Source: a virus. Taken from it: 64,000 nucleotides of DNA. Below, piece after piece: positions 14,520-62,106 of the stretch. The position numbers and the translations under genes are program-made. Under the pieces are notes generated by a model. That model ran no database searches. It was not told where the DNA came from and saw nothing but the letters and a program-made list of their open reading frames with translations. Position 1 is the stretch's first letter. Each line of letters opens with the position of its first letter. Where the stretch lies: positions 1-64,000 of IMG/VR virus record IMGVR_UViG_3300032116_000031; one strand, 5' to 3'.

Positions 14520-15449
14520 TTACCAATTAATTTTATTTCTTATTTCTATTAACAATTTATGTGTAAATTCTTCATCGACTTGATCTGGGATATTAAGCCT
14601 ATCTATTTCGCCGTCCAACCTCTTAATCCTCTTCTCCAATTCATTAATCAATTCAATATGATCCACGTTACCGTTTCTAATATCAATCAATTCTTTTCTA
14701 TTATCCCTGTAAACTTTCATCGAACCAGTATTAATTAATTCCTCCAATGAATCCAAAATCCTTTTAGCGTGCATTAAACTTTTGCCGTCCACCAACAAAC
14801 CATTATCGTCAACAACATTCCTGACCCCTTGAAAAAACAAATAACCAACAGGCGTTTCTCCTTTGGGGATATAAGAAGAATAAATTCCACCTATATCTGA
14901 AATAATCCCCTTATATAGTTTTGTTTTCTTATAATATAATGGAAAACTGCTTTTATTCTCATAATCCTTACAGAAAAGACCTAAATTGTTAATATCATAA
15001 CCATTCAATTTTAAGAAATCATTTAGAGGCATTTCTTTACCATCAAGGGTTATAACAAAGGCCAAATCAAACATATTCTTAATCTTTGACTTCTTAATGT
15101 TTTGAACCGCCATTCCAATAAAGGCATTCTTTATTTTTTTGGTAATAAAGATATTTCTGTTCTCAATTAACAAATTGAAAACAGGGTCCTTGTGTAAAAT
15201 AAATCTATCATCAGTGAAAAGCATCTCTAATAGAGATGGATTACCGCTTTTAAGCAATTGAATAAATCGCCTAATTTCATAACCAACATAATCCTTATTG
15301 ACATTTATTTGCTCAACATATTTAAACCCAAGTATGCTTTCTGGGTGTTGAATGTATACAAATTTTTTGTCAACATCAGAAGTGATAATGTCAGTGTTGT
15401 AGCTAACGCTACCAGTAATTGATTCGAATAATATTTTTTTATCTTCCAT
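14520..15449 (-). CDS. Pol-beta-family nucleotidyltransferase (RlaP/NrdC.11-like)
   Basis: GS.SY.....SDVD catalytic motif, YEIRRF..LL..GNP..LE.L and K.LMHA.R.L...IRNG. Confidence 0.75.
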   Translation of the reverse strand: MEDKKILFESITGSVSYNTDIITSDVDKKFVYIQHPESILGFKYVEQINVNKDYVGYEIRRFIQLLKSGNPSLLEMLFTDDRFILHKDPVFNLLIENRNIFITKKIKNAFIGMAVQNIKKSKIKNMFDLAFVITLDGKEMPLNDFLKLNGYDINNLGLFCKDYENKSSFPLYYKKTKLYKGIISDIGGIYSSYIPKGETPVGYLFFQGVRNVVDDNGLLVDGKSLMHAKRILDSLEELINTGSMKVYRDNRKELIDIRNGNVDHIELINELEKRIKRLDGEIDRLNIPDQVDEEFTHKLLIEIRNKINW

Positions 15450-15456
15450 AACAATG

Positions 15457-15464
15457 CAAAGATA
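15457..15464 (-). promoter_or_regulatory. Bacteroidota-type -7 promoter element TATCTTTG
   Basis: TAnnTTTG just upstream of the nucleotidyltransferase ATG. Confidence 0.55.
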
Positions 15465-15507
15465 AGGCTAATCGAATCAATTATCCAAGTTTTTCTTAAA
15501 CTTTTTT

Positions 15508-16299
15508 TTAATAATCCAATAAAGAGGATTTTAACATTGTTTTGCCAAATAAATTCTCGCGGTGCATGCGGGAAAATAAATCCTTTAACCATGATTTTAC
15601 TTCTTTTTCACCATGTTCGGATTTAAGTCTTTGAAATATGGTATTTAAAGAAGTGTACTTATTAAACAAATCAGATAAGGTCATTTGGTCCCAAATATCT
15701 TCGTGATCCTTTTTTAATGATTTTATGGCATGGATTTGAGCATTAACCTCATAAAAAGCCATATTAACATCTTTCTTATATCTATTTTTATATTTAGGGT
15801 TATCGCTATCTACTGTTTTTTTAACAGGTTTATATATGCTTTGTTTGTTCAAGCTATCATCTAACCAATGCGTTAATTCATGGTAGATGGAGGCTTTTAA
15901 TCTAAACGGTGTTATTTCATTAAAGATTGTTTTTTCTTGACTGGGTGATAAATCTCCAAATTCGCCGTCTATTAAATATTCTAGTGCGTTTAAATTGGGT
16001 GATATTTGAATTATTTTATCAGAGGGATTATAAAAGTTTCCTTTAAAATCCATTTTACCATATATAATTATTGGATTTATTTCATCTGCTTTTTGTGCTA
16101 ATTCAGATGGTAAATATTTACTAAGGATAGATTTAACTTTAAAATTATGATAAGCTGCTTCTTTTAATTCTGGGTCATCAGTTGAATTGAAATCCTCCAT
16201 GAATTTATCGAAACCTAATTTTTTATAGATGAAGTCTACATCATCAAAAATTTCATAAGTTGCTTCTGCTAAGATTTTTTTCATATTATAATAAATCAC
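15508..16299 (-). CDS. Putative zincin-like metallopeptidase (likely start 16284)
   Basis: HELTH (HExxH) followed by the downstream E-x-x-A motif YEVNAQ. Confidence 0.55.
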   Translation of the reverse strand: MIYYNMKKILAEATYEIFDDVDFIYKKLGFDKFMEDFNSTDDPELKEAAYHNFKVKSILSKYLPSELAQKADEINPIIIYGKMDFKGNFYNPSDKIIQISPNLNALEYLIDGEFGDLSPSQEKTIFNEITPFRLKASIYHELTHWLDDSLNKQSIYKPVKKTVDSDNPKYKNRYKKDVNMAFYEVNAQIHAIKSLKKDHEDIWDQMTLSDLFNKYTSLNTIFQRLKSEHGEKEVKSWLKDLFSRMHRENLFGKTMLKSSLLDY

Positions 16300-17155
16300 T
16301 TACAGGCTTTGTGCTCCAGAATTTGCAGCTCCAATAGCTTGCTGTTGTTTTATCTTTTCTTGTATCGCATTTGTGTCTTGCTCTGAAATTCTTTCTTCTT
16401 TTTGGATCATCTCTTTTAATTTCCATATTCTTATCCCCAAAATTAACCTTTATAATTTTGCCCGTTTTTGGGTTTTTAACGTAGACCTTATATTTCTTTA
16501 CATCGCCTTTTATGGGTTTGTTTAAAGACACCTTTCTTCCCTTATATTCTGCTTCTGTGAGGACTTCTCCTTGTTCTTGCATACTATTACAGTACTCTAT
16601 TAGATTCTCTATTACAGAGCGTTTTGAGAGGGTTATTTCGTTGGACGGCGAAAAATGCTTTGATTCAGCAATTCCTCCCTTGTCTATTGTCGCAAATTTC
16701 TCTAACCTTGGAAATGCAGGGTCATCTGTAACCTCCTTCTTCCTTTTTTCCCTCATAGCATCCCATGTTTGGGGTTTCATTAACATGTGGTTCTTTACCA
16801 AATATTTTACCTCGTCTGCATCAGCATCTTCAAATGAATTAATCCAATCAGCGTAATCCTCCACTATTTTTGCAGATACTTTTTCGTGACCGTGAGCAGT
16901 AGGTAATCCTGTTTTAGGGCTGATTTCATAAGTATCCATCTTTCCTAAATCGTGGAATAATGCTGCTAAAATTACATTAGGCTCGTCACTGAAATTCTTA
17001 TATGCTCTTCTTAAAACATAAATGATGTGTTTTAAGGTATTTCCCTCTGGATGAAAATTCGGATTTTGTTTTGCGTCCCACTGCTTGAATAACAATTCCT
17101 TTAAGTCGGCTGGCATTGATTTTATCAAATCTTGATAATTATCTGGTAATTTCAT
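16286..17155 (-). CDS. HD-domain phosphohydrolase fused to basic phage domain (DUF6321/DUF5754-like)
   Basis: HPEGNTLKH and AALFHDLGK...AHGHE..SA (HD domain as in CCA-adding enzymes/PNK). C-terminal KKYKVYV...KVNFGD...DPKRRKNFRARH.C...ASYWSC.FW. Confidence 0.7.
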   Translation of the reverse strand: MKLPDNYQDLIKSMPADLKELLFKQWDAKQNPNFHPEGNTLKHIIYVLRRAYKNFSDEPNVILAALFHDLGKMDTYEISPKTGLPTAHGHEKVSAKIVEDYADWINSFEDADADEVKYLVKNHMLMKPQTWDAMREKRKKEVTDDPAFPRLEKFATIDKGGIAESKHFSPSNEITLSKRSVIENLIEYCNSMQEQGEVLTEAEYKGRKVSLNKPIKGDVKKYKVYVKNPKTGKIIKVNFGDKNMEIKRDDPKRRKNFRARHKCDTRKDKTTASYWSCKFWSTKPVSDLL

Positions 17156-17532: not shown

Positions 17533-18063
17533 TTAAGACAAGATGTTTATTTTATTAGCAAATATTTTTTTCAATTCTCTGAATATTAATGGGTAATCTT
17601 TTTTTTGGAGTTCTTTGGATTCGTATAAAGGAATATAAATGGTTGCATCACTATAATTATTCTTCTCAAGATATAATTTCAATTCGTCGAAAGCCAAGAG
17701 CAGTAACAATTCGCTTATTTCGCCGTCCACCACACAACCCAAACTAATGCTACGTAAACTATGATCAAAGTTAAGAGTTTTTAATAACTTATCAGGTTGG
17801 TATTTTTCTTCAGAAAAATACAATAAAATTGATTTTGTTTTGTGCCTAGGAGAAATATCTTTTTCAAAATTTAAAGTGAATAATCCCTTATAAAAATATA
17901 AGTTATCTTCCGTATAATAATAGTTAGACGGACCTAAAATAACAACTTTAATATTGTTTATTTTTTTCTCAAAAGGGCGATAATCGAAGGAATTCTGTAA
18001 AATAAACAGAATAAATAATAATACCATTAAACCAAATAAAACGTATTCTAACATAAAAGCCAC
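17533..18063 (-). CDS. Membrane-anchored hypothetical protein
   Basis: N-terminal TM helix; TATCTTTG element at 18074-18081. Confidence 0.6.
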   Translation of the reverse strand: MAFMLEYVLFGLMVLLFILFILQNSFDYRPFEKKINNIKVVILGPSNYYYTEDNLYFYKGLFTLNFEKDISPRHKTKSILLYFSEEKYQPDKLLKTLNFDHSLRSISLGCVVDGEISELLLLLAFDELKLYLEKNNYSDATIYIPLYESKELQKKDYPLIFRELKKIFANKINILS

Positions 18064-18114: not shown

Positions 18115-18531
18115 TTATTTTTTTAAGCAATTATAGAAAAAGAACACTGTATCTGAAATAGATAAAGAAATTGTTGTTTCGTTGTTTCTGTTATCTACCA
18201 GCAAATGAGTTTTATTTATTTCGCTTTTGCTTAAACTATCCGCTTTATATAGCACCTGACTAACGCCGTTATTATCGTAAGTCTGTTTATTGATAACTGT
18301 GAGTTCAATCTGGTGATAAGGTAATTGAAGATAAATTATGCTATCTGAAAGATATATTCTCGATGTGTCAAAGTGCTGAACGTCATCTCCATATTTCTTT
18401 AAAGATTGTGAGGAATAATATACATCACCTTTAAAATTTTCTAAATAGTTTGTTTCTGTTTGAGGGGTGGACGGCGAAAAGCAACCTCCTAATAAAATCA
18501 GGACCAATAAGCTTAGAATTTTCTTTACCAT
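18115..18531 (-). CDS. Putative lipoprotein
   Basis: MVKK + hydrophobic stretch + lipobox LGGC. Confidence 0.6.
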   Translation of the reverse strand: MVKKILSLLVLILLGGCFSPSTPQTETNYLENFKGDVYYSSQSLKKYGDDVQHFDTSRIYLSDSIIYLQLPYHQIELTVINKQTYDNNGVSQVLYKADSLSKSEINKTHLLVDNRNNETTISLSISDTVFFFYNCLKK

Positions 18532-21896: not shown

Positions 21897-23315
21897 TTAT
21901 TGTTCTTCTGTTTTTGATTTCAAAGGCTTTACGTAAACTCTATAAACATTTGATCCCAAATTATCAATATCGTTTCTGTATTTGAATCCTAAGTTATCTT
22001 CGCCTTCCATATCATTAATCATGAAGTGAGCGTTACCGTAGTGTTTTACCACCTCTTTAATGAACTTTTCTATTTTCTCTTCATCTTCATCTGAAAGACC
22101 AGAGAAATCCCCGTTAATCAAAGCTGATAGAGCCCATTCTGGAACCAAGTATTCTACTAAGTCATTGTCTACTTCTTCATTTAGAGTTTTTTTAGTGAAG
22201 AAATCGAATTCTACTTTTTTAGATTTCACTGGCTTGGTCCAACTTTTATGTTCAAATAGTTGATTTAATTTTGCATTTGCTTTTTCTTCAGCTATTAAAT
22301 TTCTTTGTTCAAGCACTGTTGCTGAACCTTCATTCCATTCAATTAAAAATAGATTGCCTTTACCATCTAACATTTCAAATCTAGTGTTGTCATTTTTCAC
22401 TTTATTAGGAATTGACTCTTGTAGTTGAGAAACATTACTTGCAAAATCGTATTTTTCTGAATTAAATTTGAATCTTAGCATTTTACCTTCATTTATTTTA
22501 AAACCTAGTGCCGCAACACCATGTCTGTGTGTTCCTTTTGTTTTTTTAAGTTCCTTGGCATCATCGATACCTACTTTTAGGGTTTCAATATCTGAACCTA
22601 ACTGGAACAAGTTTGTATTTGTAGGGTTCTCTTCTTTCACCTTAGCCTTCGCTAACGCTGCTTGCATTAATTTAATACCTGTTGGATCCTTAGATAGTTC
22701 TTTTGTGATTCTTTCTTTGAACTCGTCTGTTAGACCATCATACATCAAATCTAAATTAGTGCTATTTTCCTTGAATTGATTCGGAATACCATCACCATTA
22801 TAATCGTTATTATCATTGTAATAATTTGGTTTTTCAGCTTTTAAAATGTCTTGATATACAATATTTATTTTATCTTCTACTTCTTTAACATTTTTCTTAC
22901 TTCCTTCACCGTTAGCTTTTCTATAATTTTTAACTAACTTATAATTCGGGTGTTCAGCCTCTTCTTTAAAAAGTTCAGCTCCAATTCTAAGGATTTCCTC
23001 ATTCATCATTTCTAAATCGTTGACATCTACAACATCAGTATAAGGGCTAATTGTTCTACGCATAAAAGCACCTTTACTCTTTGGAGTAGCCAATGGAAGT
23101 TCCATTCCGCCTCCTACACTACCTGTACTTGTCATTTCGTCGAGGTAATCAAAAAGAAGATCTTCATCATCAAATTTTCTTTTTTTACCGTCTTCCTTTT
23201 CATAGACGAATACTTTTCCTGCTGCACTATTTTCAACAGTGATTAGGTGTTCGCCGTCCACCATCATCTTATTTTCCCCTAGAAATGTGGTTCTATTTAA
23301 TTGTTTCTTATTCAT
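21897..23315 (-). CDS. Hypothetical (probable virion/head) protein
   Basis: 472 aa, charged, with several L/I-x-E sites, an EMTSTGSVG motif and a C-terminal P.WAL.ALINGD.SGL domain. Confidence 0.6.
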   Translation of the reverse strand: MNKKQLNRTTFLGENKMMVDGEHLITVENSAAGKVFVYEKEDGKKRKFDDEDLLFDYLDEMTSTGSVGGGMELPLATPKSKGAFMRRTISPYTDVVDVNDLEMMNEEILRIGAELFKEEAEHPNYKLVKNYRKANGEGSKKNVKEVEDKINIVYQDILKAEKPNYYNDNNDYNGDGIPNQFKENSTNLDLMYDGLTDEFKERITKELSKDPTGIKLMQAALAKAKVKEENPTNTNLFQLGSDIETLKVGIDDAKELKKTKGTHRHGVAALGFKINEGKMLRFKFNSEKYDFASNVSQLQESIPNKVKNDNTRFEMLDGKGNLFLIEWNEGSATVLEQRNLIAEEKANAKLNQLFEHKSWTKPVKSKKVEFDFFTKKTLNEEVDNDLVEYLVPEWALSALINGDFSGLSDEDEEKIEKFIKEVVKHYGNAHFMINDMEGEDNLGFKYRNDIDNLGSNVYRVYVKPLKSKTEEQ

Positions 23316-49448: not shown

Positions 49449-49461
49449 AAAAATAAATATT

Positions 49462-51600: not shown

Positions 51601-51621
51601 AATCTCGTTTCTTTATAAATA

Positions 51622-52398
51622 TTACAAATCTTCGTCTAAATCCCTTAAAAACTTCCTTTTCTTTTTTGTGTAGAAGTTTTTATAAAATTTTAGACTTTGA
51701 CTTATTTGTGTTGTATTTAGTAAAGTCATGTTTCGGATACATTCCAAAATAAAATTCTTCTTAAATTTTTTAGTGTCGTCTAAATAAATTTTATCCCAAT
51801 TTTTTGTTATCTCAATTATGGCTATCCCGACTTTAATGTCTGACTCTTTCAAGCCGTGTTTTTCAATATTTATATCTAAATTTGAATTATCCAATAAAGC
51901 CTCGATTTCTATAACTATTAGTTCAAAAAATTGGTGCATCAAAGAATCTTCTGTATATTCCTCATCTATAATATCAGCACCTTCATTTACTGTTCTATAA
52001 ACATCATCGTAAAGAATAACTTTCTTTTTATCTTTAGTTTCTTTTTTACGATTATTTTGCAATCTTCTCTTTATTATGGTACCAAAGTAAGAAAAAGATT
52101 TTTTGCCTCTGTCTGGATCAAACATATGGATTTTCATATGTAAGAATGATAAGGTGTCATCAAACAAATCCTTATAAGACATTTTAGCACTATACAATTT
52201 ATAACGATTTATTATTGATTCCGTCATTTTTTCTAAGGGTTTCTTTAACAAATCGTTATAAATTTGATTCTTTTCTTCATCGGAAGAAGATTTTAAGTAT
52301 CTAACAACCGCTTCTTCTTGTTCGGTTGAAAAATAACCTGAAAGCGTATTTATGTCATTAGTATTAGCATTTTTCGGTTTACGTCCTCTTTTAGCCAT
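51622..52398 (-). CDS. Late-transcription sigma factor (T4 gp55-like)
   Basis: YF..E.E.AVV.Y, K..ESII.RY and FDPD.GKK.FSYF.TI.K, resembling the gp55 region-2 motif F.P.K..N.FAYFT.I. Confidence 0.7.
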   Translation of the reverse strand: MAKRGRKPKNANTNDINTLSGYFSTEQEEAVVRYLKSSSDEEKNQIYNDLLKKPLEKMTESIINRYKLYSAKMSYKDLFDDTLSFLHMKIHMFDPDRGKKSFSYFGTIIKRRLQNNRKKETKDKKKVILYDDVYRTVNEGADIIDEEYTEDSLMHQFFELIVIEIEALLDNSNLDINIEKHGLKESDIKVGIAIIEITKNWDKIYLDDTKKFKKNFILECIRNMTLLNTTQISQSLKFYKNFYTKKKRKFLRDLDEDL

Positions 52399-52425
52399 TA
52401 AAATTAGATTAAAAAATAAAAGGCT

Positions 52426-53208
52426 TTAACCTTCATATGTTATATGTCTGTCTTCACTGAAGAAATATTCTTTTTTTGCTAAGTCTTGATAAAATTTAAT
52501 TTCAAGTTTATCCAAAGAATCATAGTATGCCGTTAGGCTACCTTCTCTCTTGATTCTATGTCTAACCATTAATTTAGGTATTACCATTACTTCGGATAGC
52601 TGATTCAAAATCCTCAAGAAATATTCGTATTCAAAGTATTTTTTGATACTATGTTTATATCCGCCATTATCAATAAATTCAGCTGTTTTGTATATAGCTG
52701 ATGTAAAGGAGAACAAGGACATTTTCTTCAATGTTTCAAAATCCAAATACCCTTGTTTATCTGTATAATTCATACTCCATGCTAATTCATTCACCATATT
52801 AGTAAAGGATTCGCCGTCGAACTCCAAGTTAATAGGAAGGAATACTGATACATTTGGATATGCTTTTGAATACTCTTCTGTGTATGTTACAAAGGTATTA
52901 TTTAATACGTCGTCATATTGTAGTACGGTGAAGTAGGGCGTGGATATGGAGGTTTGGACGGCGAAATTAATGACCTCCGTATAATTTGGATAAAGTTCCC
53001 TCAATTCCTCTGGAAGATCAAGGAAGTTTAATTTCAAGCCAAATGTATTGGATGCTTCTACTTGCTTTTTCAAATCCGCAAAAGTAGCAACCAATATATC
53101 GAAGTCTTTACTATCTTGTTTAGCCAATGACTCAAACATTTCTATAATATAGCTATCTTCGACATCTAGCTTATGAATTGGTATAATTACTGTTAATTTA
53201 TTGCTCAT
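52426..53208 (-). CDS. GT-A (family 2-like) glycosyltransferase
   Basis: LTVIIP, S...Q, N.A.....TPYF.VL..DD motifs. Confidence 0.75.
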   Translation of the reverse strand: MSNKLTVIIPIHKLDVEDSYIIEMFESLAKQDSKDFDILVATFADLKKQVEASNTFGLKLNFLDLPEELRELYPNYTEVINFAVQTSISTPYFTVLQYDDVLNNTFVTYTEEYSKAYPNVSVFLPINLEFDGESFTNMVNELAWSMNYTDKQGYLDFETLKKMSLFSFTSAIYKTAEFIDNGGYKHSIKKYFEYEYFLRILNQLSEVMVIPKLMVRHRIKREGSLTAYYDSLDKLEIKFYQDLAKKEYFFSEDRHITYEG

Positions 53209-54301
53209 CTTGATATTTTTTAATTGTTAGATTTACTTTTTCGATTTTGCTTTCAAAAATCCTATTAAAGGTTGCTTTTGTTTGATTTGTAAAGTTTTGT
53301 TCGTTGTATGGCTCCACTGTTTTTTGCATGTTGTCATACATCTGCTGTGGAACATCACCCAACAGCCAATTCTCAACAAAACGTGCTATATAATCAGGTA
53401 TCGCTAAAATATTAGATAGATACACCGCATTATCACTCAATTTGATATTATCTCCTTCGATATTTTCAGCCCATTCTGGGATTAAATCTGGAATTTTAAC
53501 AATTACAGGAACTCCTGATTTCATTGACTCCAAGGGAAATGTACCAAAGGTAGCGTAATCATCAATCCAAATAGATAAACAAGTTTCTTTTAGTGCCTCT
53601 GCAAAACTTTCTTTAGGTAAATTACCAAGGGTTTTAAAAGAGAACCAAGAATACATAGGATATTTTTGGTAGAATAGTTTTGCTACTCTTTCCAAGTCGT
53701 CTTGATTTCTACTGATAATTGATATTATTGGTTTTTGTGGAAGGGTGGACGGCGAAAAGACATCCGAAATGGCGGGATTAATAACGTAAGTATTTTTAAC
53801 AGGTTGATATTCAGCTAAAAAAGTTTTCATCTTATTAGATGTTGTAATAGCATGATCCACACCATAAAAACTCCAACCTTCGCCTGCATTCATATATTTG
53901 AAAATAAATGAGTGAGATTGACAAATTACTACTGTATCAGAAGGAAGTTTACTCTCCCAAAGCTTTTTAATTAAGTCAGCATATAGCTCTGGAATAAAAA
54001 AAGTATCGGAACCGTTAATTTGATACTCTGGATTATTATTCATTGTCGTGATTGAAATATGCTTCAACGAGGAATATCTTTCACCCATCCAATTCTGAAC
54101 ACCGACAAATTTTTCCTTTTCGTGTAACATAATGACCTTGTACCCTTCATCATCCATTATACCTGCTATCTTGTATATGTATTCAATTGAAGCCATTGGA
54201 GTGCCATTAGTGTCGGCGACAAAAAAGAATAATCTTCCTTCCTTATTCTCTATTTTGCCCCTTAGCTCTACCAATTTTTCTATTATTTCTTTATTTTCCA
54301 T
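53198..54301 (-). CDS. GT-B (family 4-like) glycosyltransferase
   Basis: C-terminal FG.FPLE.M.SGVPVI motif. Confidence 0.7.
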   Translation of the reverse strand: MENKEIIEKLVELRGKIENKEGRLFFFVADTNGTPMASIEYIYKIAGIMDDEGYKVIMLHEKEKFVGVQNWMGERYSSLKHISITTMNNNPEYQINGSDTFFIPELYADLIKKLWESKLPSDTVVICQSHSFIFKYMNAGEGWSFYGVDHAITTSNKMKTFLAEYQPVKNTYVINPAISDVFSPSTLPQKPIISIISRNQDDLERVAKLFYQKYPMYSWFSFKTLGNLPKESFAEALKETCLSIWIDDYATFGTFPLESMKSGVPVIVKIPDLIPEWAENIEGDNIKLSDNAVYLSNILAIPDYIARFVENWLLGDVPQQMYDNMQKTVEPYNEQNFTNQTKATFNRIFESKIEKVNLTIKKYQDEQ

Positions 54302-54968
54302 TTTTGAATATGTTTAATAATGCTTTTAAGTTTTTTATTTTTTTGCCTTGTTTTAAATGCTTGTTATTTTCAGTTTCAATTTTGAAAAGCTTTCTGTTCT
54401 TGGGTTTGTTTTCAATTATATAATTGTCAGCTGTTATTATCATTTTATAATCATCCCAAATGTCTTCATACGAAGAAACAAACCTCAAATTATTTAATTT
54501 ACATTTTTCTCTGGATAAGAAGAAAAGAGTCGCTGGTTTACTATTACCTATTTCCATGGAAACTAAATCGACCTCTATACCCTTTGAATTAAAATAGTTT
54601 TGTAACTCGTGGAAATCGTTAATAACATCTTTGTAAGTAACATTGGTTTTAGCTCCAATTTCAAAACTCATTTGCTCATAGAGGAATCTAAGAAAAAATT
54701 CTTTTGACTGTAACTCTATTTTAGAAGTTATATACATCGGATCAACCTTACCTTCCAAATTTAAGATTTTATTTTCTATTTTATTTTCTGTAATTTGTTG
54801 AATATCACCCTCATCATCCAATTCCCCAAATTCAAAGTCATCGCCTCGATCTATTTTTTCTTCATTGAACTGCTCTTCTTCTTCCAAATAGACATTATAA
54901 ACTTCCTTAAATGTATCATAATATCTTCTGATAACATCATTTATTGTTATTGCAATTCTTTTTTTCAT
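54291..54968 (-). CDS. Degenerate HAD/5'-nucleotidase-like protein
   Basis: RIAITINDVIR resembles HAD motif I but lacks DxD; ends with a ...N.H.. tail typical of NT5C-like proteins. Confidence 0.45.
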   Translation of the reverse strand: MKKRIAITINDVIRRYYDTFKEVYNVYLEEEEQFNEEKIDRGDDFEFGELDDEGDIQQITENKIENKILNLEGKVDPMYITSKIELQSKEFFLRFLYEQMSFEIGAKTNVTYKDVINDFHELQNYFNSKGIEVDLVSMEIGNSKPATLFFLSREKCKLNNLRFVSSYEDIWDDYKMIITADNYIIENKPKNRKLFKIETENNKHLKQGKKIKNLKALLNIFKNGK

Positions 54969-56536
54969 AGTATTACGATATAATTTTTTAATTTATGTTT
55001 ATATTCTATAATTTTTGGTTGTAAGACTTCCACAAAGTCCCTGTTTATTCTTTGAATTTTATCGGGATTTTCATCTCTTGTAAGCGATTCGTAATGATAA
55101 CATACAGCATCTCCTTGATAGAAGTTAGTTTTATCTTGTTTAGCTAATATATCTAAATTCAAAACTACATCTTCAAAACATTCAACTGTGTTTTCATTGA
55201 AGCCATTTACCTTTTCAAATAGTTTTTTGTTGACCAACAAAAAGGCCCCAGTTGATCCCACCATGTTTGAAGACAGTTTACTGTTGAAGGAATAATAACT
55301 TTTCAAACCATAATGAGAAGCGCCTATTCTTTTGGCTTTATCAACATATAAAATAATACCTGCATGTTGGATTCTTAAATTAGGATATAATAGTCTACAT
55401 CCAACCGTACCGCACCTGTGCTTGTTTTTTTGATACGTTAAAACCATTAAATCAAGGGCGTTGTTGATTAATTGAATATCATTATTACAGAATAATAATA
55501 GTTCTTCGTCATTAAAATAAGTTTTAATTAATTCATTGTTATTTTTTGCAAAATTATAGTAGTCTAATTGATGAATTTTTAATTTAATATTCTTATGATC
55601 CAACGCGGTTATTTGTTCGACATATGAATTTAAAGCAAGTAAAGACTCTTCAGATGAACCAGTATCGCCAACTACTATATTAAGATTAATGTTTTTATTT
55701 GTTTTCTTGATTAAAGAATTAATACATTTAATCAAGTAATCTATTTTATCCTTAGTTAAAATAACAACACCGACGGAAACACTATTCACCTGTACAGGAT
55801 TTATTTTTGCTATGTCTGTTAAATTAGGTCTGGTTTGGATAGGTAAGAGATCTTGATACATTTCCAAAAATACATTTCGATTAAAATACCAAGAATTAGA
55901 TACTTGACCTATACTTTTATGGTGAATTTTAAATGAAGTGGTTACACCTATTTTAACTCCTTCTAAAAAGTTTTCTACACTAAAACAAACGTCATAAAAG
56001 TGGAAACCTTTTATCTTTTCATTGAAGTTCTTCTTTATCCTATCTTTTTTCAGAGCAATAAAAACGCCGTCCAACACACAAACATTCATCACAAAATCAT
56101 GATGACTAGAAAATTCAGAATCATATTTTACTAGTTTACCATTAATTTCTCTTTCGTGAGAAACAATTCCAGCTAAGTCAGCCCTATTCTCCCACCAAAT
56201 ACCACTTTTATTTAAAGAGGTTGCTCCAGCTAATCCAATAATTCCATAATCAGTTGTTTCAAATATCTCTATTATTTTTTCATCCCACCCTTTAGGTAAA
56301 ACAATATCATCGTGGGCTAAAACTAATATCTCATCTTCCCCACACATATCCAAAGCTTTATTGTAAGCTTGTGTTAAAGAATATTGATTATCATTTTCAA
56401 ATTCAACAATCCTAACATCAGTTTTCAAAGAATTTAATATCTTTTTCCGATTTTCTTCTGATTTTTTTCTAGTACTATAAAAATAGAGCATATTTATATT
56501 TGAGTAATCTATAAGTTTTTTTAAACATTGTTGCAT
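54965..56536 (-). CDS. Two-domain GT-A glycosyltransferase
   Basis: Domain 1: AYN.A...HDD, G.IG.AG, LDG.F, FHFYD. Domain 2: VVILT, GDTGS, NFAK.NN, NNDI, QHAG, TGA.L, EDV.L, H.ES.TR. Confidence 0.85.
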   Translation of the reverse strand: MQQCLKKLIDYSNINMLYFYSTRKKSEENRKKILNSLKTDVRIVEFENDNQYSLTQAYNKALDMCGEDEILVLAHDDIVLPKGWDEKIIEIFETTDYGIIGLAGATSLNKSGIWWENRADLAGIVSHEREINGKLVKYDSEFSSHHDFVMNVCVLDGVFIALKKDRIKKNFNEKIKGFHFYDVCFSVENFLEGVKIGVTTSFKIHHKSIGQVSNSWYFNRNVFLEMYQDLLPIQTRPNLTDIAKINPVQVNSVSVGVVILTKDKIDYLIKCINSLIKKTNKNINLNIVVGDTGSSEESLLALNSYVEQITALDHKNIKLKIHQLDYYNFAKNNNELIKTYFNDEELLLFCNNDIQLINNALDLMVLTYQKNKHRCGTVGCRLLYPNLRIQHAGIILYVDKAKRIGASHYGLKSYYSFNSKLSSNMVGSTGAFLLVNKKLFEKVNGFNENTVECFEDVVLNLDILAKQDKTNFYQGDAVCYHYESLTRDENPDKIQRINRDFVEVLQPKIIEYKHKLKNYIVIL

Positions 56537-56634
56537 TAAATATAAGGAAGCTTTAAAAGTTTTATTTTATTACCTATATTTACCTTATTATTTATTAATA
56601 TTTTTTACACAATACAAACAAAATTTTTTAAACT

Positions 56635-56868
56635 ATGAAATGGTTCACACTTGACATTTTGCGTCAAATTTTAATGGTAGCAGGCGCTATCGCAGTAGGT
56701 ATGGGTTGGAAAGACCAAGAATCAGTAAATATGCTTATCGGTATTCTTATGTCGGTTGCTGGTGCTGTTTGGCAACTTTTTGATCACAGCGCTGTCCAAG
56801 AAGAAGTTAGAAGTTTGAAGGAAGAGGTTAGAAGCTTCAGAGAGTTGAAGCCTACTAGCAAGAAATAA
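56635..56868 (+). CDS. Small two-TM protein, putative holin
   Basis: RQIL...GA...G and IG..MS..G.VW helices with a charged C-terminus; own upstream TATTTAT element and terminator. Confidence 0.55.
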   Translation: MKWFTLDILRQILMVAGAIAVGMGWKDQESVNMLIGILMSVAGAVWQLFDHSAVQEEVRSLKEEVRSFRELKPTSKK

Positions 56869-56881
56869 TAATTTGATAGGC

Positions 56882-56925
56882 AAAAAAAAAGACCGCAGCA
56901 TATTTCTATGTTGCGGTTTTTTTTT
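56882..56925. terminator. Bidirectional intrinsic terminator
   Basis: A9-GACCGCAGCATA-TTTC-TATGTTGCGG-T9 between convergent genes. Confidence 0.85.
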
Positions 56926-57517
56926 ATTTAAAAAATTCGTCAAGGGAATCTAACATTATCAGATAGAAAATTATTAAAGTGATATGTTCTTTAAAATTAT
57001 CCGAATCAATTAATAGATTAAAAGTGTCTTCTATTCTTAATTTCACAATTTCTTCCGTCGACAATGTAGAAAAAATTCCTTTGGGTTTTAAGTAGAAATT
57101 AAGGTTTATAAAATTTAATTCTACATCATTAATTAAATTCTTTTCTATTTCTTCTAATAGTTTTATCGGAGTTAATTCTTCTTCCAATTCTGATCTTAGA
57201 ATTATTAAATGCAATAAAAAATATTTTAGTAATTCCTTCTTTTCAGTTATATTGAATTTTAAATCTTTATATTCACTAAAAATATTTAAAGGCTTGGAAG
57301 CGTAATTTGAAATCAAATATTCTAAAATACTTTTCCTTTCAAACACTGTAAAATATTGATAACTCGTCTTTGTAAAATAACTTTTAATTTTTCTTACAAC
57401 TTTTAAGGGTTCAAAAGACTCAATATTTTTATTTTGAATTATTGGTTTATTACCTACCACGCTAAAATAATAGTCATCAGTAAAACTTGAATTCTCCTCG
57501 TTTATAATATATTCCAT
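56924..57517 (-). CDS. Hypothetical protein
   Basis: 197-aa ORF. Confidence 0.6.
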   Translation of the reverse strand: MEYIINEENSSFTDDYYFSVVGNKPIIQNKNIESFEPLKVVRKIKSYFTKTSYQYFTVFERKSILEYLISNYASKPLNIFSEYKDLKFNITEKKELLKYFLLHLIILRSELEEELTPIKLLEEIEKNLINDVELNFINLNFYLKPKGIFSTLSTEEIVKLRIEDTFNLLIDSDNFKEHITLIIFYLIMLDSLDEFFK

Positions 57518-57528
57518 AGAAATAATTT

Positions 57529-58398
57529 TTAAATTGATTTTTTTAATTTAACATATATAACGAAAGTCTTAATTATTTCGTAAATCATTTGATATGGATC
57601 ATCTATATTTTTCTTTTCCTTGAAATATTTCACCAATGGAGCCTCTTCACTGTAAAGTTTAAAAGAAAAGAACATATAATCATATAAATGGAAAAATAAC
57701 ATGCTGGTATAAACCTCTGTCGTTTCTTCAGAAGTTATGTCTACTTTATGGTTTTCATTGTCTTCAAACATTTCAACTAAAACGTCCACAGCCTCATTTA
57801 TGTCTTTTGGTAGCAGGTCTTTTATTTTCTTTTCACTAAGTTTATTTTTTTCGTATAAGGCTATCTCTTCATCTGTCAAGATATTTTCATATTTACTGTG
57901 CCCTATCTTATTCTTAATATCTTTTGATAAATCCAAATTTAACTCATACGTTAATTGGGAAAAATTATCCGTTTTAAATTTATCTTTTAACACCTTAATA
58001 ACAGGAGATTTATCGTAAAATAAAAATAATTCATCGTAGATGAAACTGGAGAAGGGATGGTAAAAGAAAGAAGTTATCACTTCAACGCTTGAACTTTTAA
58101 ACATCTTTTCTAAGTCTTCATCATACTCCAATAAATCCAAGCATTTCTCCAATACGCCTTCGTAAGTTGAAGGAAGGGCATCAAGTTGTGTCTGAATAAA
58201 ATCCTTTAACAATTTTACATCTTCTTTTTTATTCCCAGATTCAGCTAAATCAATGAAATAATTAAAGAACATAATCATTGTGTAGTTACTGTCAAAGTCG
58301 AATTGTGGATTCTCATATGTATCCTTTTTAACAGCCTTGATTATTTCTGATAGATTATATTTGATTATATTTGAATCCTTATTAATACTAAATTTCAT
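57529..58398 (-). CDS. Hypothetical protein with tandem internal repeat (DUF6794-like)
   Basis: Two units: LP(S/K)..E....L...FF(Y)H..D..F...(S/A)P..K.... Confidence 0.45.
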   Translation of the reverse strand: MKFSINKDSNIIKYNLSEIIKAVKKDTYENPQFDFDSNYTMIMFFNYFIDLAESGNKKEDVKLLKDFIQTQLDALPSTYEGVLEKCLDLLEYDEDLEKMFKSSSVEVITSFFYHPFSSFIYDELFLFYDKSPVIKVLKDKFKTDNFSQLTYELNLDLSKDIKNKIGHSKYENILTDEEIALYEKNKLSEKKIKDLLPKDINEAVDVLVEMFEDNENHKVDITSEETTEVYTSMLFFHLYDYMFFSFKLYSEEAPLVKYFKEKKNIDDPYQMIYEIIKTFVIYVKLKKSI

Positions 58399-59011
58399 TT
58401 TTAAATTCTCCTTTTATGATAGTTTCATACTCTAAGGTATAAACATCTTGGTTAAATAATAATTCTTTTATGTTTTGATCGTATTTTTCAGAGCGGACTA
58501 TTACCTTTTTAATTTTATCTTTTACCTCGTTTATATAATACAGGCTAGTAGGTGTATCGTAAGTCGCAACAATCATTTTCTCGCTAAATGCTGGAAGGTA
58601 TGTTGTAATATAATAATTCAATAAATGGTTATTATCATCCTTATCAACATAAGCTATTTTATACTTAAAATTTTCCTTTTCAGTTGTGAAATTGGATTTA
58701 TCATATTTCTTATAAGATATTACCGAAAAGACATTGTTATATACTTTAAAGAAATTATTATCATAATCATATTGTGCCTTATAATCATAATTTTCTTTTA
58801 AAATATCTTGAGCAAGATTTACAATGTAATTTTTAGTTTTGCCATCGTCGCAAATTATTAATATAGAGCAATCTTCCTCAAAGAAAAGTAAATCGCAGAA
58901 ATAGATAACCATTTGAGTAGTCAAGCCGACACTCTTTGGTTGACCTATAATGATTAACTCCTCTTTTGAGGAAGATATAACCTCTGATATTTTAGATACA
59001 TCTACTATCAT
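58388..59011 (-). CDS. Degenerate terminase-ATPase-like domain protein
   Basis: IIIGQPKSVGLTT....Y....LF......ILI resembles the terminase large-subunit Walker-A region (xxRQxGxTT). Confidence 0.4.
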   Translation of the reverse strand: MIVDVSKISEVISSSKEELIIIGQPKSVGLTTQMVIYFCDLLFFEEDCSILIICDDGKTKNYIVNLAQDILKENYDYKAQYDYDNNFFKVYNNVFSVISYKKYDKSNFTTEKENFKYKIAYVDKDDNNHLLNYYITTYLPAFSEKMIVATYDTPTSLYYINEVKDKIKKVIVRSEKYDQNIKELLFNQDVYTLEYETIIKGEFKNEI

Positions 59012-59445
59012 TTACCTGTACTACCGAAACCACCTGTACCCCTTTCTGTATCGGAAAGGGTTTCTGCTTGTGTTATTTGGAAGTTATACCCTTCATTCTT
59101 TCTAAGAATCAATTGAGCTACTCTATCTCCCTGTTTAAAATTATGTTCCATAGAATCAATATGGTCTACTCGCCTCAATCTCATTTGTACTTCACCTCTG
59201 TAACTTGGATCAATAATTCCAACGGAATTGGCTTGTACCCAAGGTTCTTTACTAAGAGATGATCGAGGTACCAATTCCAAATAATAACCGTCTGGGGGTT
59301 CTACTGAAATACCTAATTTGATTACAAGGGCACCATTTATTTCATCGAAAGAATGTGCATATACATCAAAGCCTACATCTGTTGGGCTTGCCTTCGTTGG
59401 TAATTTTGAATCTGGGTGTAAAAGTTTTACTTTAATTTCGTTCAT
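59008..59445 (-). CDS. dut: dUTP diphosphatase
   Basis: GFDV, PRSS, GIIDPSYRGE, GDRVAQL and RGTGGFGSTG: all five trimeric dUTPase motifs. Confidence 0.95.
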   Translation of the reverse strand: MNEIKVKLLHPDSKLPTKASPTDVGFDVYAHSFDEINGALVIKLGISVEPPDGYYLELVPRSSLSKEPWVQANSVGIIDPSYRGEVQMRLRRVDHIDSMEHNFKQGDRVAQLILRKNEGYNFQITQAETLSDTERGTGGFGSTGK

Positions 59446-60335
59446 ATTACTTGTTTTAAATTTTGCAAATAGTTAAATAGATTATATACAGTTGTAACAT
59501 CACTTTCACAGTAAGATACTAATTCTTTAATATCGAATTCATCTGAATAATAATATTTACCCATTGACTCTCCATTAACAGCTCCTTGTTTAGAGCTTTC
59601 AAATCCTAAGTTTAAAGCTATAGTATCTAATGTAGCATCGCCTGTTGCATTACCTGCTCTCCATTCTGATGCTGTATCAATAACTTTTTTATTCCAAGGC
59701 TGTTGAAATGGTTGGTGTAGAAAATAAGGCGTTATTAATCCATTCAAAGACATTCTCTTAGTGATAAAAGGAATATCGAAGAAATTGATGTTATGCCCTA
59801 CTACCCAAACATTACCGTTATTTTCCTTTGAAATTCGCTCATATAACTTGTTGATTCCAAATTGGAAATTCATTAAGAGTTCTAATTCATCGCCAACAAA
59901 AGAAATAGTCTGAAACTCGCCATTCTTTTTAAATCCCAAGCTAATACAAATAATTTTTGCATATTCAGGATAAAGGCCAGCTATTTCTCTGTACCGTGCA
60001 GCAGGTGATTCAGTTCTTTGATTCTTATAAATTTTCAGAAGCGTTTCTGGATTTATATCTGTTATATTAGATTCTTTTTCTAATTCATGAAAAAACGCAT
60101 CAATAATCTTACTTTTAGCTGATTCATCATAATTAGTCCATCTATCTAATTTTAACTCAAAACGCTTTTGTAGCTCTGGTGACAACTTATTATAATCATC
60201 ATAGTTAGCAACTGTTTCAATATCCAAGAAAATACATTCATCTGCTTTAATAGGCATATTATTCTTTGGATTAAGAAAGAACGTTCTACCTACTTCACTT
60301 TTTAATTCTGAAACCTTTTTGTTTGTGTATATCAT
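59442..60335 (-). CDS. DEDD 3'-5' exonuclease (PolB-exo/RNase_H_2-like)
   Basis: FLDIET, GHN...FDIP and YC..DV motifs; TACCTTTG element at 60352-60359. Confidence 0.85.
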   Translation of the reverse strand: MIYTNKKVSELKSEVGRTFFLNPKNNMPIKADECIFLDIETVANYDDYNKLSPELQKRFELKLDRWTNYDESAKSKIIDAFFHELEKESNITDINPETLLKIYKNQRTESPAARYREIAGLYPEYAKIICISLGFKKNGEFQTISFVGDELELLMNFQFGINKLYERISKENNGNVWVVGHNINFFDIPFITKRMSLNGLITPYFLHQPFQQPWNKKVIDTASEWRAGNATGDATLDTIALNLGFESSKQGAVNGESMGKYYYSDEFDIKELVSYCESDVTTVYNLFNYLQNLKQVI

Positions 60336-60375
60336 ATCTATTAATTTTCTGCAAAGGTAACTGTTTTAATCCAAT

Positions 60376-61563
60376 CTACAAAAGATTTCTATAAATTTCT
60401 GCTCTAATTTTAGTGGTGTCATCTAAATTGAAATTCTTAAAAACATATTGGTAGAGATTTTCTCCCATATCTATTCTCATTTGTTCCGATTCCACTAACT
60501 GCTTAACATATTTCATCCAATTTTTATGCTCTTTTCTGGGATCAACTATTAGGCAATTTTTTTCATGTTCGCCGTCCAAATAAGGCTGAACCCCACTAAC
60601 GATAATGGGCTTCTTCTTAACTCCAGCCTCAAGCATCTTTAAATTACTCTTATAATAATTGAATTTATTATCTTGTAAAGGGGCAAGAGCAATATCGATT
60701 TCATCATAAGATTGACAATATGAATTAATAGGTTTAGTCCATACACGCTTATATTTCATTTGATTCTGATAAGGATAAGGATCTTGAATGAACTCGTGAA
60801 GATACTCTATGAATTTATTGTCTTTAAAAGCATAGTTATCAGTAAACTCTATTTCCATTTTATGCCAAACAGAATTCAAAGCTGTTTCCCTAGCACTATT
60901 GAAGCCACATAACTGCATTTGGATATTCTTATTCATAGTAGAAGACATTACGCCTCTTAACAACTTAATATCTTCCAAATGAGAAGATCCAGCTACATAT
61001 CCAATATTCACAGTTTCATGTGGAATACTATTTATCTGATACTGTTTTTCTTTAAAATTAATAGAGTTAGGCAAGCAAACCACATTCTTATTATACTTTC
61101 TTAAAACATCAACAAAAAATTCTGATGTAGTAGTCACTAAATCTGCTTTCTTAATTGCAGCTAAGGTTTTCTCTTTGAGTTTGATATTTTTTGCAATTGC
61201 ATAATAAGGATGTAAAGCATGATATTCAAAATAATCATCAATATCGACAATTAATTTAATCCCCATGGATTTATATATATCCGTTTGTCTTCCGATAGCT
61301 TCTATTTGCTCTATCACTGAATGATAAAATATCGCGTCAAATTTTTTAACTCTTTCGGTATTTAAAATTTCTCTATCTTCTGCTAATTCAATGTAAAACT
61401 CATCTTTAAATAAGGTTTGGAGCTTAATGTGTGGATCAGATATTCTGTATTTATTGATACCTGAACTAGGGTCATTTAAAAGGAATACTAAAATTTTTTT
61501 TATATTTCTCGACATACAAATTATTTTTAGCAAATATAATAAAAATTGAAAAAGATAACTCAA
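60376..61563 (-). CDS. GT-B glycosyltransferase (likely start 61515)
   Basis: YRI..P, DIDD, ADLVT.TS..., PNSI, IG..A.SSH..D and DIALAPL..N.FN..KS.LK.LEAG motifs. Confidence 0.85.
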   Translation of the reverse strand: MSYLFQFLLYLLKIICMSRNIKKILVFLLNDPSSGINKYRISDPHIKLQTLFKDEFYIELAEDREILNTERVKKFDAIFYHSVIEQIEAIGRQTDIYKSMGIKLIVDIDDYFEYHALHPYYAIAKNIKLKEKTLAAIKKADLVTTTSEFFVDVLRKYNKNVVCLPNSINFKEKQYQINSIPHETVNIGYVAGSSHLEDIKLLRGVMSSTMNKNIQMQLCGFNSARETALNSVWHKMEIEFTDNYAFKDNKFIEYLHEFIQDPYPYQNQMKYKRVWTKPINSYCQSYDEIDIALAPLQDNKFNYYKSNLKMLEAGVKKKPIIVSGVQPYLDGEHEKNCLIVDPRKEHKNWMKYVKQLVESEQMRIDMGENLYQYVFKNFNLDDTTKIRAEIYRNLL

Positions 61564-62106
61564 AAATTTTTATTATTTAGTGGTTTTAGATATTCTTTTT
61601 ATAACGGAAGATCCCTTAATAAACATTGTATAGGGGAATTCACTGTACTGTGGAATTGTGTATATAGACTTCCTTATTATAGGTTTGATTATGAGTTGGA
61701 CGGCGAAATAGAAGAAGAAATAATCGCATTTAAAACAATTGGCTGCTGGATTATTATTTCCAACAGCCAAATACATAAAATCAACTACGAGGAAGAATTA
61801 TTAAACCTTAATCTACCTATTAAAAAAGATAATGAAAACTACGAATTTGTCTATATAATAAATTCGGCGATAGGATATAAAATAGGTAGAACTAAAAACA
61901 TTGATAATAGAAGTGCAATTTTTAATGTTAAATTGCCGTTCGAATGGTCTTTCTATGATATTCACATCGTAAAAGACTCAAAACGAGTTGAAAAATTGTT
62001 CCATTTGGTTTTCAAGAATAAAAGAATAAACGGAGAATGGTATGACCTAAACGCGGAAGATCTAAATGATATTAAACGCTTTTTACAAACTCCATATTCC
62101 CCTTAA
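61546..62106 (+). CDS. GIY-YIG nuclease (T5orf172/MUG113-like)
   Basis: FVYII...YKIGRT....R...E..H..F..KR..GEWY; true start uncertain. Confidence 0.75.
   Translation: MKKITQKFLLFSGFRYSFYNGRSLNKHCIGEFTVLWNCVYRLPYYRFDYELDGEIEEEIIAFKTIGCWIIISNSQIHKINYEEELLNLNLPIKKDNENYEFVYIINSAIGYKIGRTKNIDNRSAIFNVKLPFEWSFYDIHIVKDSKRVEKLFHLVFKNKRINGEWYDLNAEDLNDIKRFLQTPYSP

Follow-up and report, generated by a model that had tools for sequence, protein, structure and literature searches.

A nine-letter DNA word that appears to overwrite codons and amino acids in a clade of distant T4-like giant phages

Introduction

The described systems that come closest to the element I will discuss in this article, a nine-letter DNA word (TGGACGGCG) that recurs along the first 64 kb of the 136,214-bp IMG/VR record IMGVR_UViG_3300032116_000031, are found in competent bacteria as well as in phages, and each is represented here by an extract of one published paper. 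Uptake signal sequences (USS), the words of Pasteurellaceae that have their like in the DNA uptake sequences (DUS) of Neisseriaceae, are reported in the extract to about double the frequency of the matching tripeptides and to use frames that go with preferred codons (Findlay and Redfield, PMC2817400). For phage tf, an exact 9-nt nick consensus has been described and a co-evolving nickase proposed, and in tf, T5 and phiKMV-like phages the nick words are, as far as the extract states, confined to one strand with 4-14 per genome (PMC3517423). Some lambdoid phages are enriched in the Chi word of their host, the Chi-rich ones being, according to the extract, without Rec proteins of their own (PMC12315714). 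Finally, the primase of phage T7 uses the site GTC, prefers G/T template 5' of it and makes A/C primers, the best sites given in the extract being GGGTC, TGGTC and GTGTC (PMC11109968). No phage paper on TGGACGGCG or its complement stood among the best-ranked literature matches, although a description could stand lower in the ranking. In what follows, the window is the whole stretch of 64,000 nucleotides, and the record is called G000 where it is compared with its relatives.

I consider it close to certain that the word is an element selected at the level of the DNA. It is a signal in DNA and not in proteins, and selection, as the comparison of related genomes shows, creates its sites by point substitution and then keeps them letter-perfect, at the cost of rare codons and of amino-acid replacements in less constrained proteins. 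What the signal is for can be stated with less confidence, and I will weigh the possibilities at the points where the evidence touches them.

A signal in DNA

The window holds 36 exact copies of the word, on both strands, compared with 0.06 on average, and never more than 1, in 100 dinucleotide-preserving shuffles, and over the whole record it is the most frequent 9-mer of all (67 copies, 39 forward and 28 reverse), while the reversed, non-complemented control word has 0 copies there and a 14-mer form of the word has 22 in the 136 kb. An original prediction, made from the letters of the window, had counted 31 coding copies in four reading frames, and my own longest-ORF calls (124 open reading frames, or ORFs, with 97% of the record coding) reproduce this exactly: 13 copies are read in sense as nTG GAC GGC Gnn and give [LV]DG[EV], 8 are read in antisense as nCG CCG TCC Ann and give [ST]PS, 3 are read in antisense as nnC GCC GTC CAn and give xAV[HQ], and 7 are read in sense as TGG ACG GCG and give WTA. 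The other 5 copies are intergenic (2968, 7890, 7918, 7936 and 13468). The count of 31 was thus right, but the range of 14609-61705 given with it omits 13 copies at 542-13468, and eight copies counted in the 31 (all 7 WTA copies and one LDGV) lie outside it. Among the non-redundant sites of the whole phage family all six frames are in use (99, 53, 44, 7, 2 and 1), and a protein motif is ruled out by the four peptides in the window, the six frames in the family, the intergenic copies and the fixed codons.

The intergenic copies are more numerous than the space between genes would lead one to expect, with 6 of the 67 record copies falling in the 3% of DNA that is intergenic. On the plus strand, the copy at 2968-2976 lies directly past the stop of the ORF 2-2962, and that at 13468, together with AAA, makes up the entire 12-nt spacer (13468-13479) between two minus-strand genes. 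The copy at 7890-7898 (plus) is the left arm and that at 7918-7926 (minus) the right arm of a hairpin, and a further minus-strand copy follows at 7936-7944. This inverted pair (7887-7929) has a 12-bp stem and a 19-nt A/T loop, is followed by CAUUUU and reaches -30.8 kcal/mol (z -6.2); it stands directly after the stop of the 1620-aa ORF 3019-7881 and is likely a terminator. Four inverted word pairs of the same kind are present in L053, an 8.3-kb fragment of a relative, and inverted pairs forming hairpins between genes are also a feature of USS and DUS. A scan of the virus collection for inverted pairs returned mostly unrelated GC-rich hairpins. Such pairs, and the fact that the phage encodes a sigma-like protein, are what a promoter, a terminator, a pause site or a signal read in RNA or peptide would have in its favor. 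However, 61 of the 67 copies are inside genes, non-redundant sites are equally sense and antisense (110 versus 95) and fall anywhere along genes, four different peptides are encoded, and single copies form no hairpin, so that a role of the word in transcription or in its products is very improbable.

Codons and proteins rewritten

If the word were a by-product of protein sequence, the peptides compatible with it would be spelled according to the codon usage of the genome, and this is far from being the case, in agreement with the proposal of the original prediction that rare codons reflect selection on the DNA. Throughout the record, 28 of the 32 peptides of the form [LMV]DG[VADEG] are spelled with the word as against 0.14 expected from codon usage, and the same applies to [SPTA]PS[IMTNKSR] in antisense frame 1 (16/24 versus 0.01), to xAV[HQ] in antisense frame 2 (8/16 versus 0.02) and to WTA (7/13 versus 0.09). 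The codons involved are rare ones in this genome of 31.5% GC, taking only small shares of their own amino acid (GAC 18%, GGC 13%, TTG 22%, GTG 11%, TCG 4.8%, CCG 6.6%, TCC 7.5%, GCC 9.8%, GTC 6.6%, ACG 8.7% and GCG 8.1%), which is a difference from USS, placed in preferred codons according to the extract. All nine [LV]DGE peptides of the window genes beyond 12 kb use the word (6/6 LDGE and 3/3 VDGE). The 157 DG dipeptides outside the word are written GAT GGT 55 times, GAT GGA 30 times and GAC GGC 14 times, some of the latter at near-miss sites; as had been noticed earlier, TLDGK, MLDGK and TYDGE use GAT GGT, and the near-miss peptides IDGE (near 15972) and FDGE (near 52821) keep GAC GGC GAA.

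The WTA copies belong to a repeat, GWTAQFHN(S/A)LG, carried by the three giant ORFs at the left end of the window, where the word spells W-T-A in 7 of 10 units: at 542-550 and 2048-2056 (ORF 2-2962), at 3652-3660, 3787-3795, 4975-4983 and 6892-6900 (ORF 3019-7881) and at 8873-8881 (ORF 7979-11938), all on the plus strand, as is a sense L-D-G-V copy at 2604-2612. In the relative G006 only one of three GWTAQFHN units has the word, the others reading ACA GCT or ACC GCA. These plus-strand ORFs (window 2-11938; at least 986, 1620 and 1319 aa) have a GC content of 38-40% versus 30% elsewhere and no Pfam match, and they are probably fiber or surface proteins.

Furthermore, it is not only the choice among synonymous codons that is affected, and the earlier suggestion that proteins are bent to fit the word holds when compatible peptides are counted in the genes beyond 12 kb (40,023 residues) and in 300 within-protein shuffles. 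The [LMV]DG[VADEG] class is observed 31 times versus 6.3 ± 2.5 in the shuffles, the [SPTA]PS class 22 times versus 6.7 ± 2.4 and the xAV[HQ] class 15 times versus 3.1 ± 1.7, which makes compatible peptides 3-5 times commoner overall than in shuffled proteins; USS likewise raise the peptides that they encode, by ~2-fold in the extract. Of six control classes, made for instance by reversing the peptides or by putting E in place of D or I in place of L/V, four are at expectation; of the two that deviate, both of them reversed, [IMTNKSR]SP[SPTA] is raised (14 versus 6.5) and [HQ]VA. is low (0 versus 3.3). The surplus is the word's own doing, because it disappears when the word-encoded copies (27, 16 and 8) are removed, leaving 4, 6 and 7. 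Some 50 tetrapeptides in 40,000 residues owe their existence solely to the need of the DNA for the word. Six genes of at least 1.5 kb are without any copy, including those for the major capsid protein (record 125474-127300) and the portal (130399-132198), and a 1.7-kb gene next to them (132230-133930) is word-free as well, although each of these three is at least 1.7 kb long; the most constrained proteins seem to be spared, as they are by USS and DUS.

Retention and origin of the sites

Pattern scans and protein-guided searches of IMG/VR produced a set of fragments from relatives that bear the same exact word at GC contents of 30-39%. The larger ones are G006 (72 kb, 34 copies, 78% DNA identity to G000, spanning window 407-64000 and beyond), G008 (34 kb, 13 copies, 92% identity) and, each at about 68% identity, G002 (66 kb, 49 copies), G003 (45 kb, 42 copies) and G007 (40 kb, 28 copies), and the shorter ones are L066, L008, L057, L090, L091, L098 and L053. 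When sites are mapped through protein alignments and set beside the frequency at which ordinary aligned 9-mers are identical, exact retention is 12/12 in G008 (61.6% for ordinary 9-mers), 27/35 in G006 (13.9%), 15/24 in G002 (2.9%), 10/16 in G003 (3.0%), 10/15 in G007 (3.8%) and 3/8 in L066 (3.5%). These relatives amount to about three independent samples rather than six, because G002, G003, G007 and L066 are mutually close and G006 shares most of the G000 sites.

Retention can be followed along the window. G006 keeps the sense copies at 14609-14617 (minus strand, L-D-G-E), 23252-23260 (minus, V-D-G-E) and 61697-61705 (L-D-G-E in the plus-strand ORF 61546-62106) and the antisense copies, on the plus strand, at 16642-16650 (S-P-S-N), 18468-18476 (S-P-S-T), 32521-32529 (S-P-S-T) and 38243-38251 (S-P-S-T, kept in L066 too). 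G006, G002 and G007 all keep those at 48884-48892 (minus, sense L-D-G-E), 52955-52963 (plus, antisense F-A-V-Q) and 53746-53754 (plus, antisense S-P-S-T), and three relatives keep those at 56065-56073 (minus, sense L-D-G-V, in a glycosyltransferase gene) and 60570-60578 (minus, sense L-D-G-E). The copy at 17721-17729 (minus, sense V-D-G-E) is absent in G006, with 7 mismatches, and the one at 24074-24082 (plus, antisense S-P-S-T) is absent from it, with 8.

Sites are either perfect or gone: those that a relative does not keep differ from G000 at 2-9 letters and never at one, and reciprocal mapping gives a sole exception, a site where G000 differs by a single letter. At record 97683, G000 has TGGACGGAG and G008, G002, G003, L008 and L098 have the exact word, which is a recent single-letter loss in G000. 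Copies with one mismatch are few in general: the window has 7 of them beside its 36 exact copies, and the whole record has 17. One variant, TGGACGGCA, may nonetheless be accepted with its A as the last letter of the word; it is possibly tolerated because it has five copies (window 14783, 29939 and 33747; record 86951 and 103937) with the usual G/T lead-in and A-rich tail and is retained as the same variant in relatives. The two copies that had been reported to read G-R-Q are real and lie on the minus strand at 29939-29947 (identical in G006) and 33747-33755 (identical in G006 and L066), and the third, at 14783, reads V-D-G-K.

New sites have arisen in each lineage. G002, for example, shares 15 sites with G000, does not share 29 and has 5 that could not be aligned, and a total of 88 lineage-specific sites show no alignment gaps and extra divergence limited to positions -3 to +8. 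It follows from these gap-free alignments that sites arise and decay by point substitution and not by insertion, and a mobile element or inserted cassette is ruled out for the same reason.

Outside a narrow group of phages the word is missing. At 80 loci with homologues of the major capsid protein it occurs only where the capsid is at least 79% identical (L235-L237), and loci at 60-63% (L238, L314) and at 41-52% identity have 0 or 1 copy. There are 0 copies at 39 loci (392.5 kb) with homologues of the protein encoded at 45357-47174 (32-57% identical), and none, even with one mismatch allowed, in the sister contig G316 (84 kb, syntenic with window 19.5-47 kb). The state with the word is the derived one, because the G316 peptide is different at 9/9 mappable sites, which also bears out the expectation that the residues were gained in the lineage with the word. 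In the SbcC-like gene, S-P-S-I at 26659-26667 (plus, antisense) and L-D-G-E at 28543-28551 (minus, sense) are Q-I-Q-L and L-D-E-K in G316. Further along, L-D-G-V at 33577-33585 (minus, sense) is I-D-G-I in L066 and Q-S-S-L in the outgroup, V-D-G-E at 38369-38377 (minus, sense) is I-N-G-I in L066 and H-N-G-I in the outgroup, T-P-S-T at 39263-39271 (plus, antisense) is T-P-S-S in AT-rich codons and F-A-V-H at 41721-41729 (plus, antisense) is F-I-Y-H. The antisense N-A-V-Q at 45646-45654 (plus) is kept in 4/4 aligned relatives and is D-V-I-E in G316 and xV/I-I-x at 35 outgroup loci, and the sense L-D-G-E at 46241-46249 (minus) is L-D-N-K in clade C and I-G-D-F in the outgroup. Intermediate steps can be seen at 40817-40825 (minus, sense L-D-G-V), a recent gain with a path from G-N-G-x in the outgroup and L066 through L-D-G-I, written TTA GAT GGT, in G006 to L-D-G-V with the word in G000. 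At two further sites the peptide of the outgroup L238 is identical or almost so but is written in AT-rich codons, with SPSN as TCT CCA TCT AAT and IDGV, the counterpart of the site at 56065, as ATA GAT GGT GTA; both are cases of pure synonymous recoding. The locus to which site 48884 maps on L238 is possibly a paralogue. The word is an invention of a narrow clade of distant T4-like giant phages.

Several other searches gave less. A scan of the collection with a 15-mer found mostly unrelated high-GC contigs with [LV]DGEI in preferred codons and was useful for low-GC loci alone, and the SbcC-like protein as single query matched only G006. The relatives of nrdB in genome collections are contigs of metagenome-assembled genomes (MAGs) without a match to a window protein, unusable as outgroups and no evidence on the host, and three MAGs bearing nrdB have 0 copies of the word. 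No other "dialect" word was found in 20-kb windows at the 80 capsid-homologue loci: the seven 9-letter copies of one candidate (L309, capsid protein 42% identical) are arms of intergenic terminator hairpins, C5GAAA...TTTCG5 followed by T runs, and not a coding-sequence word, and the candidates L262 and L281 are protein repeats. The gene content of G316, which is too partial, singled out no clade-specific genes.

A unit of about 30 nt with a polar flank

The nine letters are the core of a larger, strand-specific unit of ~30 nt, which consists of ~20 nt rich in G/T (poor in A/C), KTGGACGGCG and AAW, as derived from 236 non-redundant family sites. Position -1 is G or T in 98% of these and position -2 is G in 70%, the word is followed by A, A and then A or T, and over the 20 letters that precede it A and C are scarce, with a three-letter period. 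This period follows the codons and not the word, because the enrichment in G/T sits at third codon positions: upstream third-position G+T on the word strand is 0.86, 0.80 and 0.81 in the three main frames, compared with a background of 0.53 in sense and 0.47 in antisense genes, and first and second positions show only a slight rise. The flank accompanies the word in evolution. In 88 lineage-specific pairs its G+T is 0.63 with the word versus 0.50 in the word-free orthologue (p 6e-16), at old shared sites it reaches 0.69, and positions -12 to -1 and +9 to +11 of shared sites are less divergent than their surroundings.

This flank helps to judge two alternatives. According to the first, the word has no function and is the product of a mutational or repair drive, for instance a mismatch-correction enzyme that converts near-matches into the word. 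Repair drives have been proposed for other over-represented words, and one would account for the scarcity of one-mismatch neighbors (7 versus 36 exact) and for orthologous positions that are bimodal, at 0 or at least 2 mismatches from G000 to its relatives with one single-mismatch site in the reciprocal mapping. However, a process acting on nine letters leaves unexplained a wobble-position G/T flank of ~20 nt that is gained with the word and is stronger at old sites, and it accounts neither for the even same-strand spacing in G000 nor for the amino-acid replacements at 9/9 sites, and I regard it as scarcely probable. The second alternative makes the copies duplex binding sites for an architectural, packaging or compartment-targeting protein, that is, a "self" label for condensation, headful packaging or import. 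The high copy number in both orientations, the restriction to one clade, the inverted intergenic pairs shared with DUS and a density that varies by lineage, as it would for a label of which more is better, are all in keeping with this. A duplex label has no need of a 20-nt one-sided compositional flank, though, and packaging of the T4 type is not known to be sequence-specific, which leaves this explanation improbable, if less so than a drive.

The phage and the question of its host

The record is rated 41% complete by CheckV, and because of this rating for 136,214 bp the full genome is probably ~330 kb. The phage is a distant T4-like giant myovirus, for which Pfam and PHROG scans matched a Gp23-type capsid protein, a Gp20-type portal and a sheath. 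They also matched PolB, a DnaB-like helicase (record 79098-80483), a UvrD-like and a SNF2 helicase, a 1367-aa protein combining BT4734_N with a helicase (104973-109076), ribonucleotide reductase, a RecA-like recombinase (82092-83141) and, at 26318-30921, proteins like SbcC and SbcD. A search of the record with ARAGORN gave no tRNA gene. A 7.9-kb part of the window gave no blastn match in the phage collection, and tblastn with PolB matched Salinibacter phages alone, at 24-26% identity, from which no cultured relative or named host follows. The phage is present in sequencing runs of 14 studies, labeled as freshwater, wastewater, subsurface and "fungus" metagenomes, and the Logan contigs are strain variants of this phage only. 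No RNA run was listed among them, and two raw-read runs yielded a single read each and no point at which molecules start or stop, too little to bear on nicks or expression.

Some other genes deserve mention in their own right. At window 13703-14518 and 16286-17155, one protein combines a dATP/dGTP diphosphohydrolase N-terminal domain (E 2.7e-29) with a weak deoxynucleotidase (NT5C) match, and an HD-domain protein is encoded near it. Phages in which a canonical base is replaced are known to have enzymes of the dATP/dGTP diphosphohydrolase type, and the present phage may likewise have modified DNA; the ORFs scanned included no PurZ-like enzyme. Outside the window are a TnpB-type (IS605 OrfB) nuclease, a caspase-domain peptidase, a CCA-adding/poly(A) polymerase-type enzyme and an IMP dehydrogenase/GMP reductase-like protein (as a set, record 115985-117265, 119488-120300, 121430-122593 and 117291-118397). 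A 25-kb block from window 47271-64000 to record ~72700, with glycosyltransferases, a PolB-exonuclease-like protein and PolB, has no counterpart in G316, where the neighbors of genes 45357-47174 and 72704-73123 abut.

Only 2 of the 124 genes have a Shine-Dalgarno-like core upstream, and upstream regions are A-rich and G-poor. Such scarcity fits a Bacteroidota host, which is accordingly the host suggested here, and the genomes sampled for the word come from this one phylum: 301 of one family, whose center genome is titled Flavobacteriaceae bacterium, and 401 from across the phylum. The idea that the phage has adopted a host signal, be it an uptake sequence, Chi or another host word, starts from the analogy with USS and DUS that was drawn in the original prediction, and the effects on coding sequence do resemble theirs (PMC2817400, in extract). 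The likeness extends to the type of word, which is short and exact, has a density of ~0.5-1 per kb, occurs in either orientation and in several frames and lies mainly within genes. What does not stand is membership, because the word is in a phage and not in a competent bacterium, is not enriched in the 702 Bacteroidota genomes, uses rare codons and has a one-sided G/T flank of ~20 nt with very few one-mismatch copies. Uptake sequences, which abound in the genome of the competent bacterium itself and are read by a DNA-uptake receptor on its surface, are not known to carry a strand-specific flank. The flanked 12-mer has 0-3 copies per genome in 299 of the 301 family genomes, at the level of a control word, and the 14-mer is present in 10 of the 401 phylum genomes with at most 2 copies each. 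Two MAGs of the sampled family (G100 and G286) have 5 and 7 copies of the 12-mer, which could be taken in favor of a host word; these copies are on separate, mostly small contigs, fit mis-binned phage contigs and probably are contigs of the phage clade binned with a bacterial genome, and the two MAGs are a weak host lead. In addition, the same exact word persists across phage lineages of 30-39% GC. The lack of enrichment in any sampled genome argues against a host uptake or Chi signal, and I would give an adopted host signal very little chance.

Who reads the word?

No sampled candidate host genome carries the word, and for this reason I infer that its reader is encoded by the phage; because the flank is one-sided and compositional, the reader should also be polar and act on one strand. 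The reading that I place first, tentatively and at less than even confidence, is that the phage's own machinery for replication, or for recombination-dependent replication, uses the word to load or to start on single-stranded DNA. A phage factor would recognize the word on one strand and act in a polar fashion, with lagging-strand priming or the loading of a helicase or recombinase as examples of its use. The G/T tract would be either a structure-free landing pad or the first stretch copied, and a strand without A and C, like its complement without G and T, hardly folds on itself and therefore suits a single-stranded landing pad. One machine that would fit is a primase or primase-helicase beginning at the word and copying on into the G/T tract; another is a Chi-like enzyme after whose action the 5' side would stay single-stranded for a recombinase. 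Being GC-rich and rare in a genome of 31% GC, the word would in addition label the DNA of the phage as self. I take as support for loading the even spacing of same-strand copies in G000 (more even than random, CV 0.56 and 0.67, p 0.0006 and 0.023) and likewise in G006, the use of both strands, the phage's own PolB, DnaB-like helicase, RecA-like, SbcCD-like and BT4734_N-plus-helicase genes, and the likeness of the flank to that of T7 primase sites, which, as extracted, are also strand-specific start signals with G/T template on the 5' side. Primase sites, too, are needed on both strands with kilobase spacing. Taken to its full extent, this reading would describe a private entry signal, in which a phage protein, having read an exact word of 9-10 nt on one strand, would load onto the adjacent structure-free G/T tract or start there, with the result that both strands of a ~330-kb genome are tiled with several hundred copies and proteins are rewritten; in that complete form I find it possible but rather doubtful.

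There are a number of points that weigh against loading. The scans identified no reader protein, and no primase, RecB-type nuclease or methyltransferase was recognized by Pfam or PHROG in the 69 of 124 ORFs scanned, of a record that covers about 41% of the genome. The known primases read three letters and not nine, to my knowledge, and need no special sites written into genomes, and none was recognized in the 136 kb. No trinucleotide such as GTT is enriched in the flank. The even spacing is weak in G002 (p 0.05 and 0.16) and absent in G003 (p 0.41 and 0.69), and an alternation of strands (18/23 in the window, 35/54 beyond 12 kb, p 0.025) fails to recur in G002, G003, G006, G007 or G008 and is not relied on. 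Word density differs twofold among lineages, from 0.49 to 0.94 per kb, which fits "more is better" as well as a fixed architecture. Finally, the evidence that the host lacks the word comes from samples of a single phylum.

Two alternatives come next in my ranking, both unlikely and neither before the other. One is that the copies are site-specific nick sites, at each of which a phage nickase cuts one strand and provides nicks for clamp entry, repair synthesis or recombination. The exact 9-nt consensus of tf has a similar information content, and the present word resembles those nicked in tf, T5 and phiKMV-like phages in being phage-specific, strand-specific, exact and ~9 nt long with a presumed phage-encoded reader that co-evolves (PMC3517423, in extract). 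The polar flank is compatible with this, and a 630-aa protein with matches to HNH and homing-endonuclease PHROGs is encoded at record 123500-125392. In T4, the clamp is loaded at nicks for late transcription. However, the described nick sites number 4-14 and lie on one strand, and the present word occupies both, with 39 plus and 28 minus copies in 136 kb or about one per 2 kb.

The other is a Chi-like stop-and-load site, where a helicase-nuclease of phage or host would be tamed and would load recombinase on the G/T strand 5' of the word, protecting DNA from either end and marking it as self. Like Chi, the word is an over-represented polar word that would mark DNA for a recombination machine; copies in either orientation are distributed along the genome in roughly equal numbers, the G/T tract is on the 5' side, where an enzyme of the Chi type leaves single-stranded DNA, and a RecA-like recombinase and an SbcCD-like nuclease are encoded. 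RecA prefers GT-rich DNA. There is also the extracted precedent of Chi enrichment in some lambdoid phages, but the Chi-rich ones are without Rec proteins and the present phage has RecA-like and SbcCD-like genes of its own (PMC12315714). Chi, moreover, is a host word, read by the RecBCD or AddAB of the host, that is common and oriented in the host genome, and the phage word is enriched in none of the 301 + 401 Bacteroidota genomes and hence is not the Chi of those hosts. No AddA-type nuclease, and none of the RecB type, was seen among the 69 scanned ORFs, and the 5-8 nt of known Chi words count against a nine-letter one.

What the word means

The word offers a clean natural case of a non-coding signal that overrides both codon usage and protein sequence, and its stepwise gain can be traced across relatives, for example from G-N-G-L to L-D-G-I and on to L-D-G-V with the word. 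For anyone working with these phages there are practical consequences, since the word is a sharp marker of the phage clade in metagenomes and since synonymous sites are not neutral here, which calls for caution wherever evolution is analyzed from genes. As neither the sister phages nor the sampled host genomes have the word, there must be a reader, encoded by the phage, with a specificity of at least 18 bits. We know of none of the following mechanisms in T4-like phages, and finding this reader could reveal sequence-specific priming or loading, a Chi-like system owned by a phage, or site-specific nicking on two strands.

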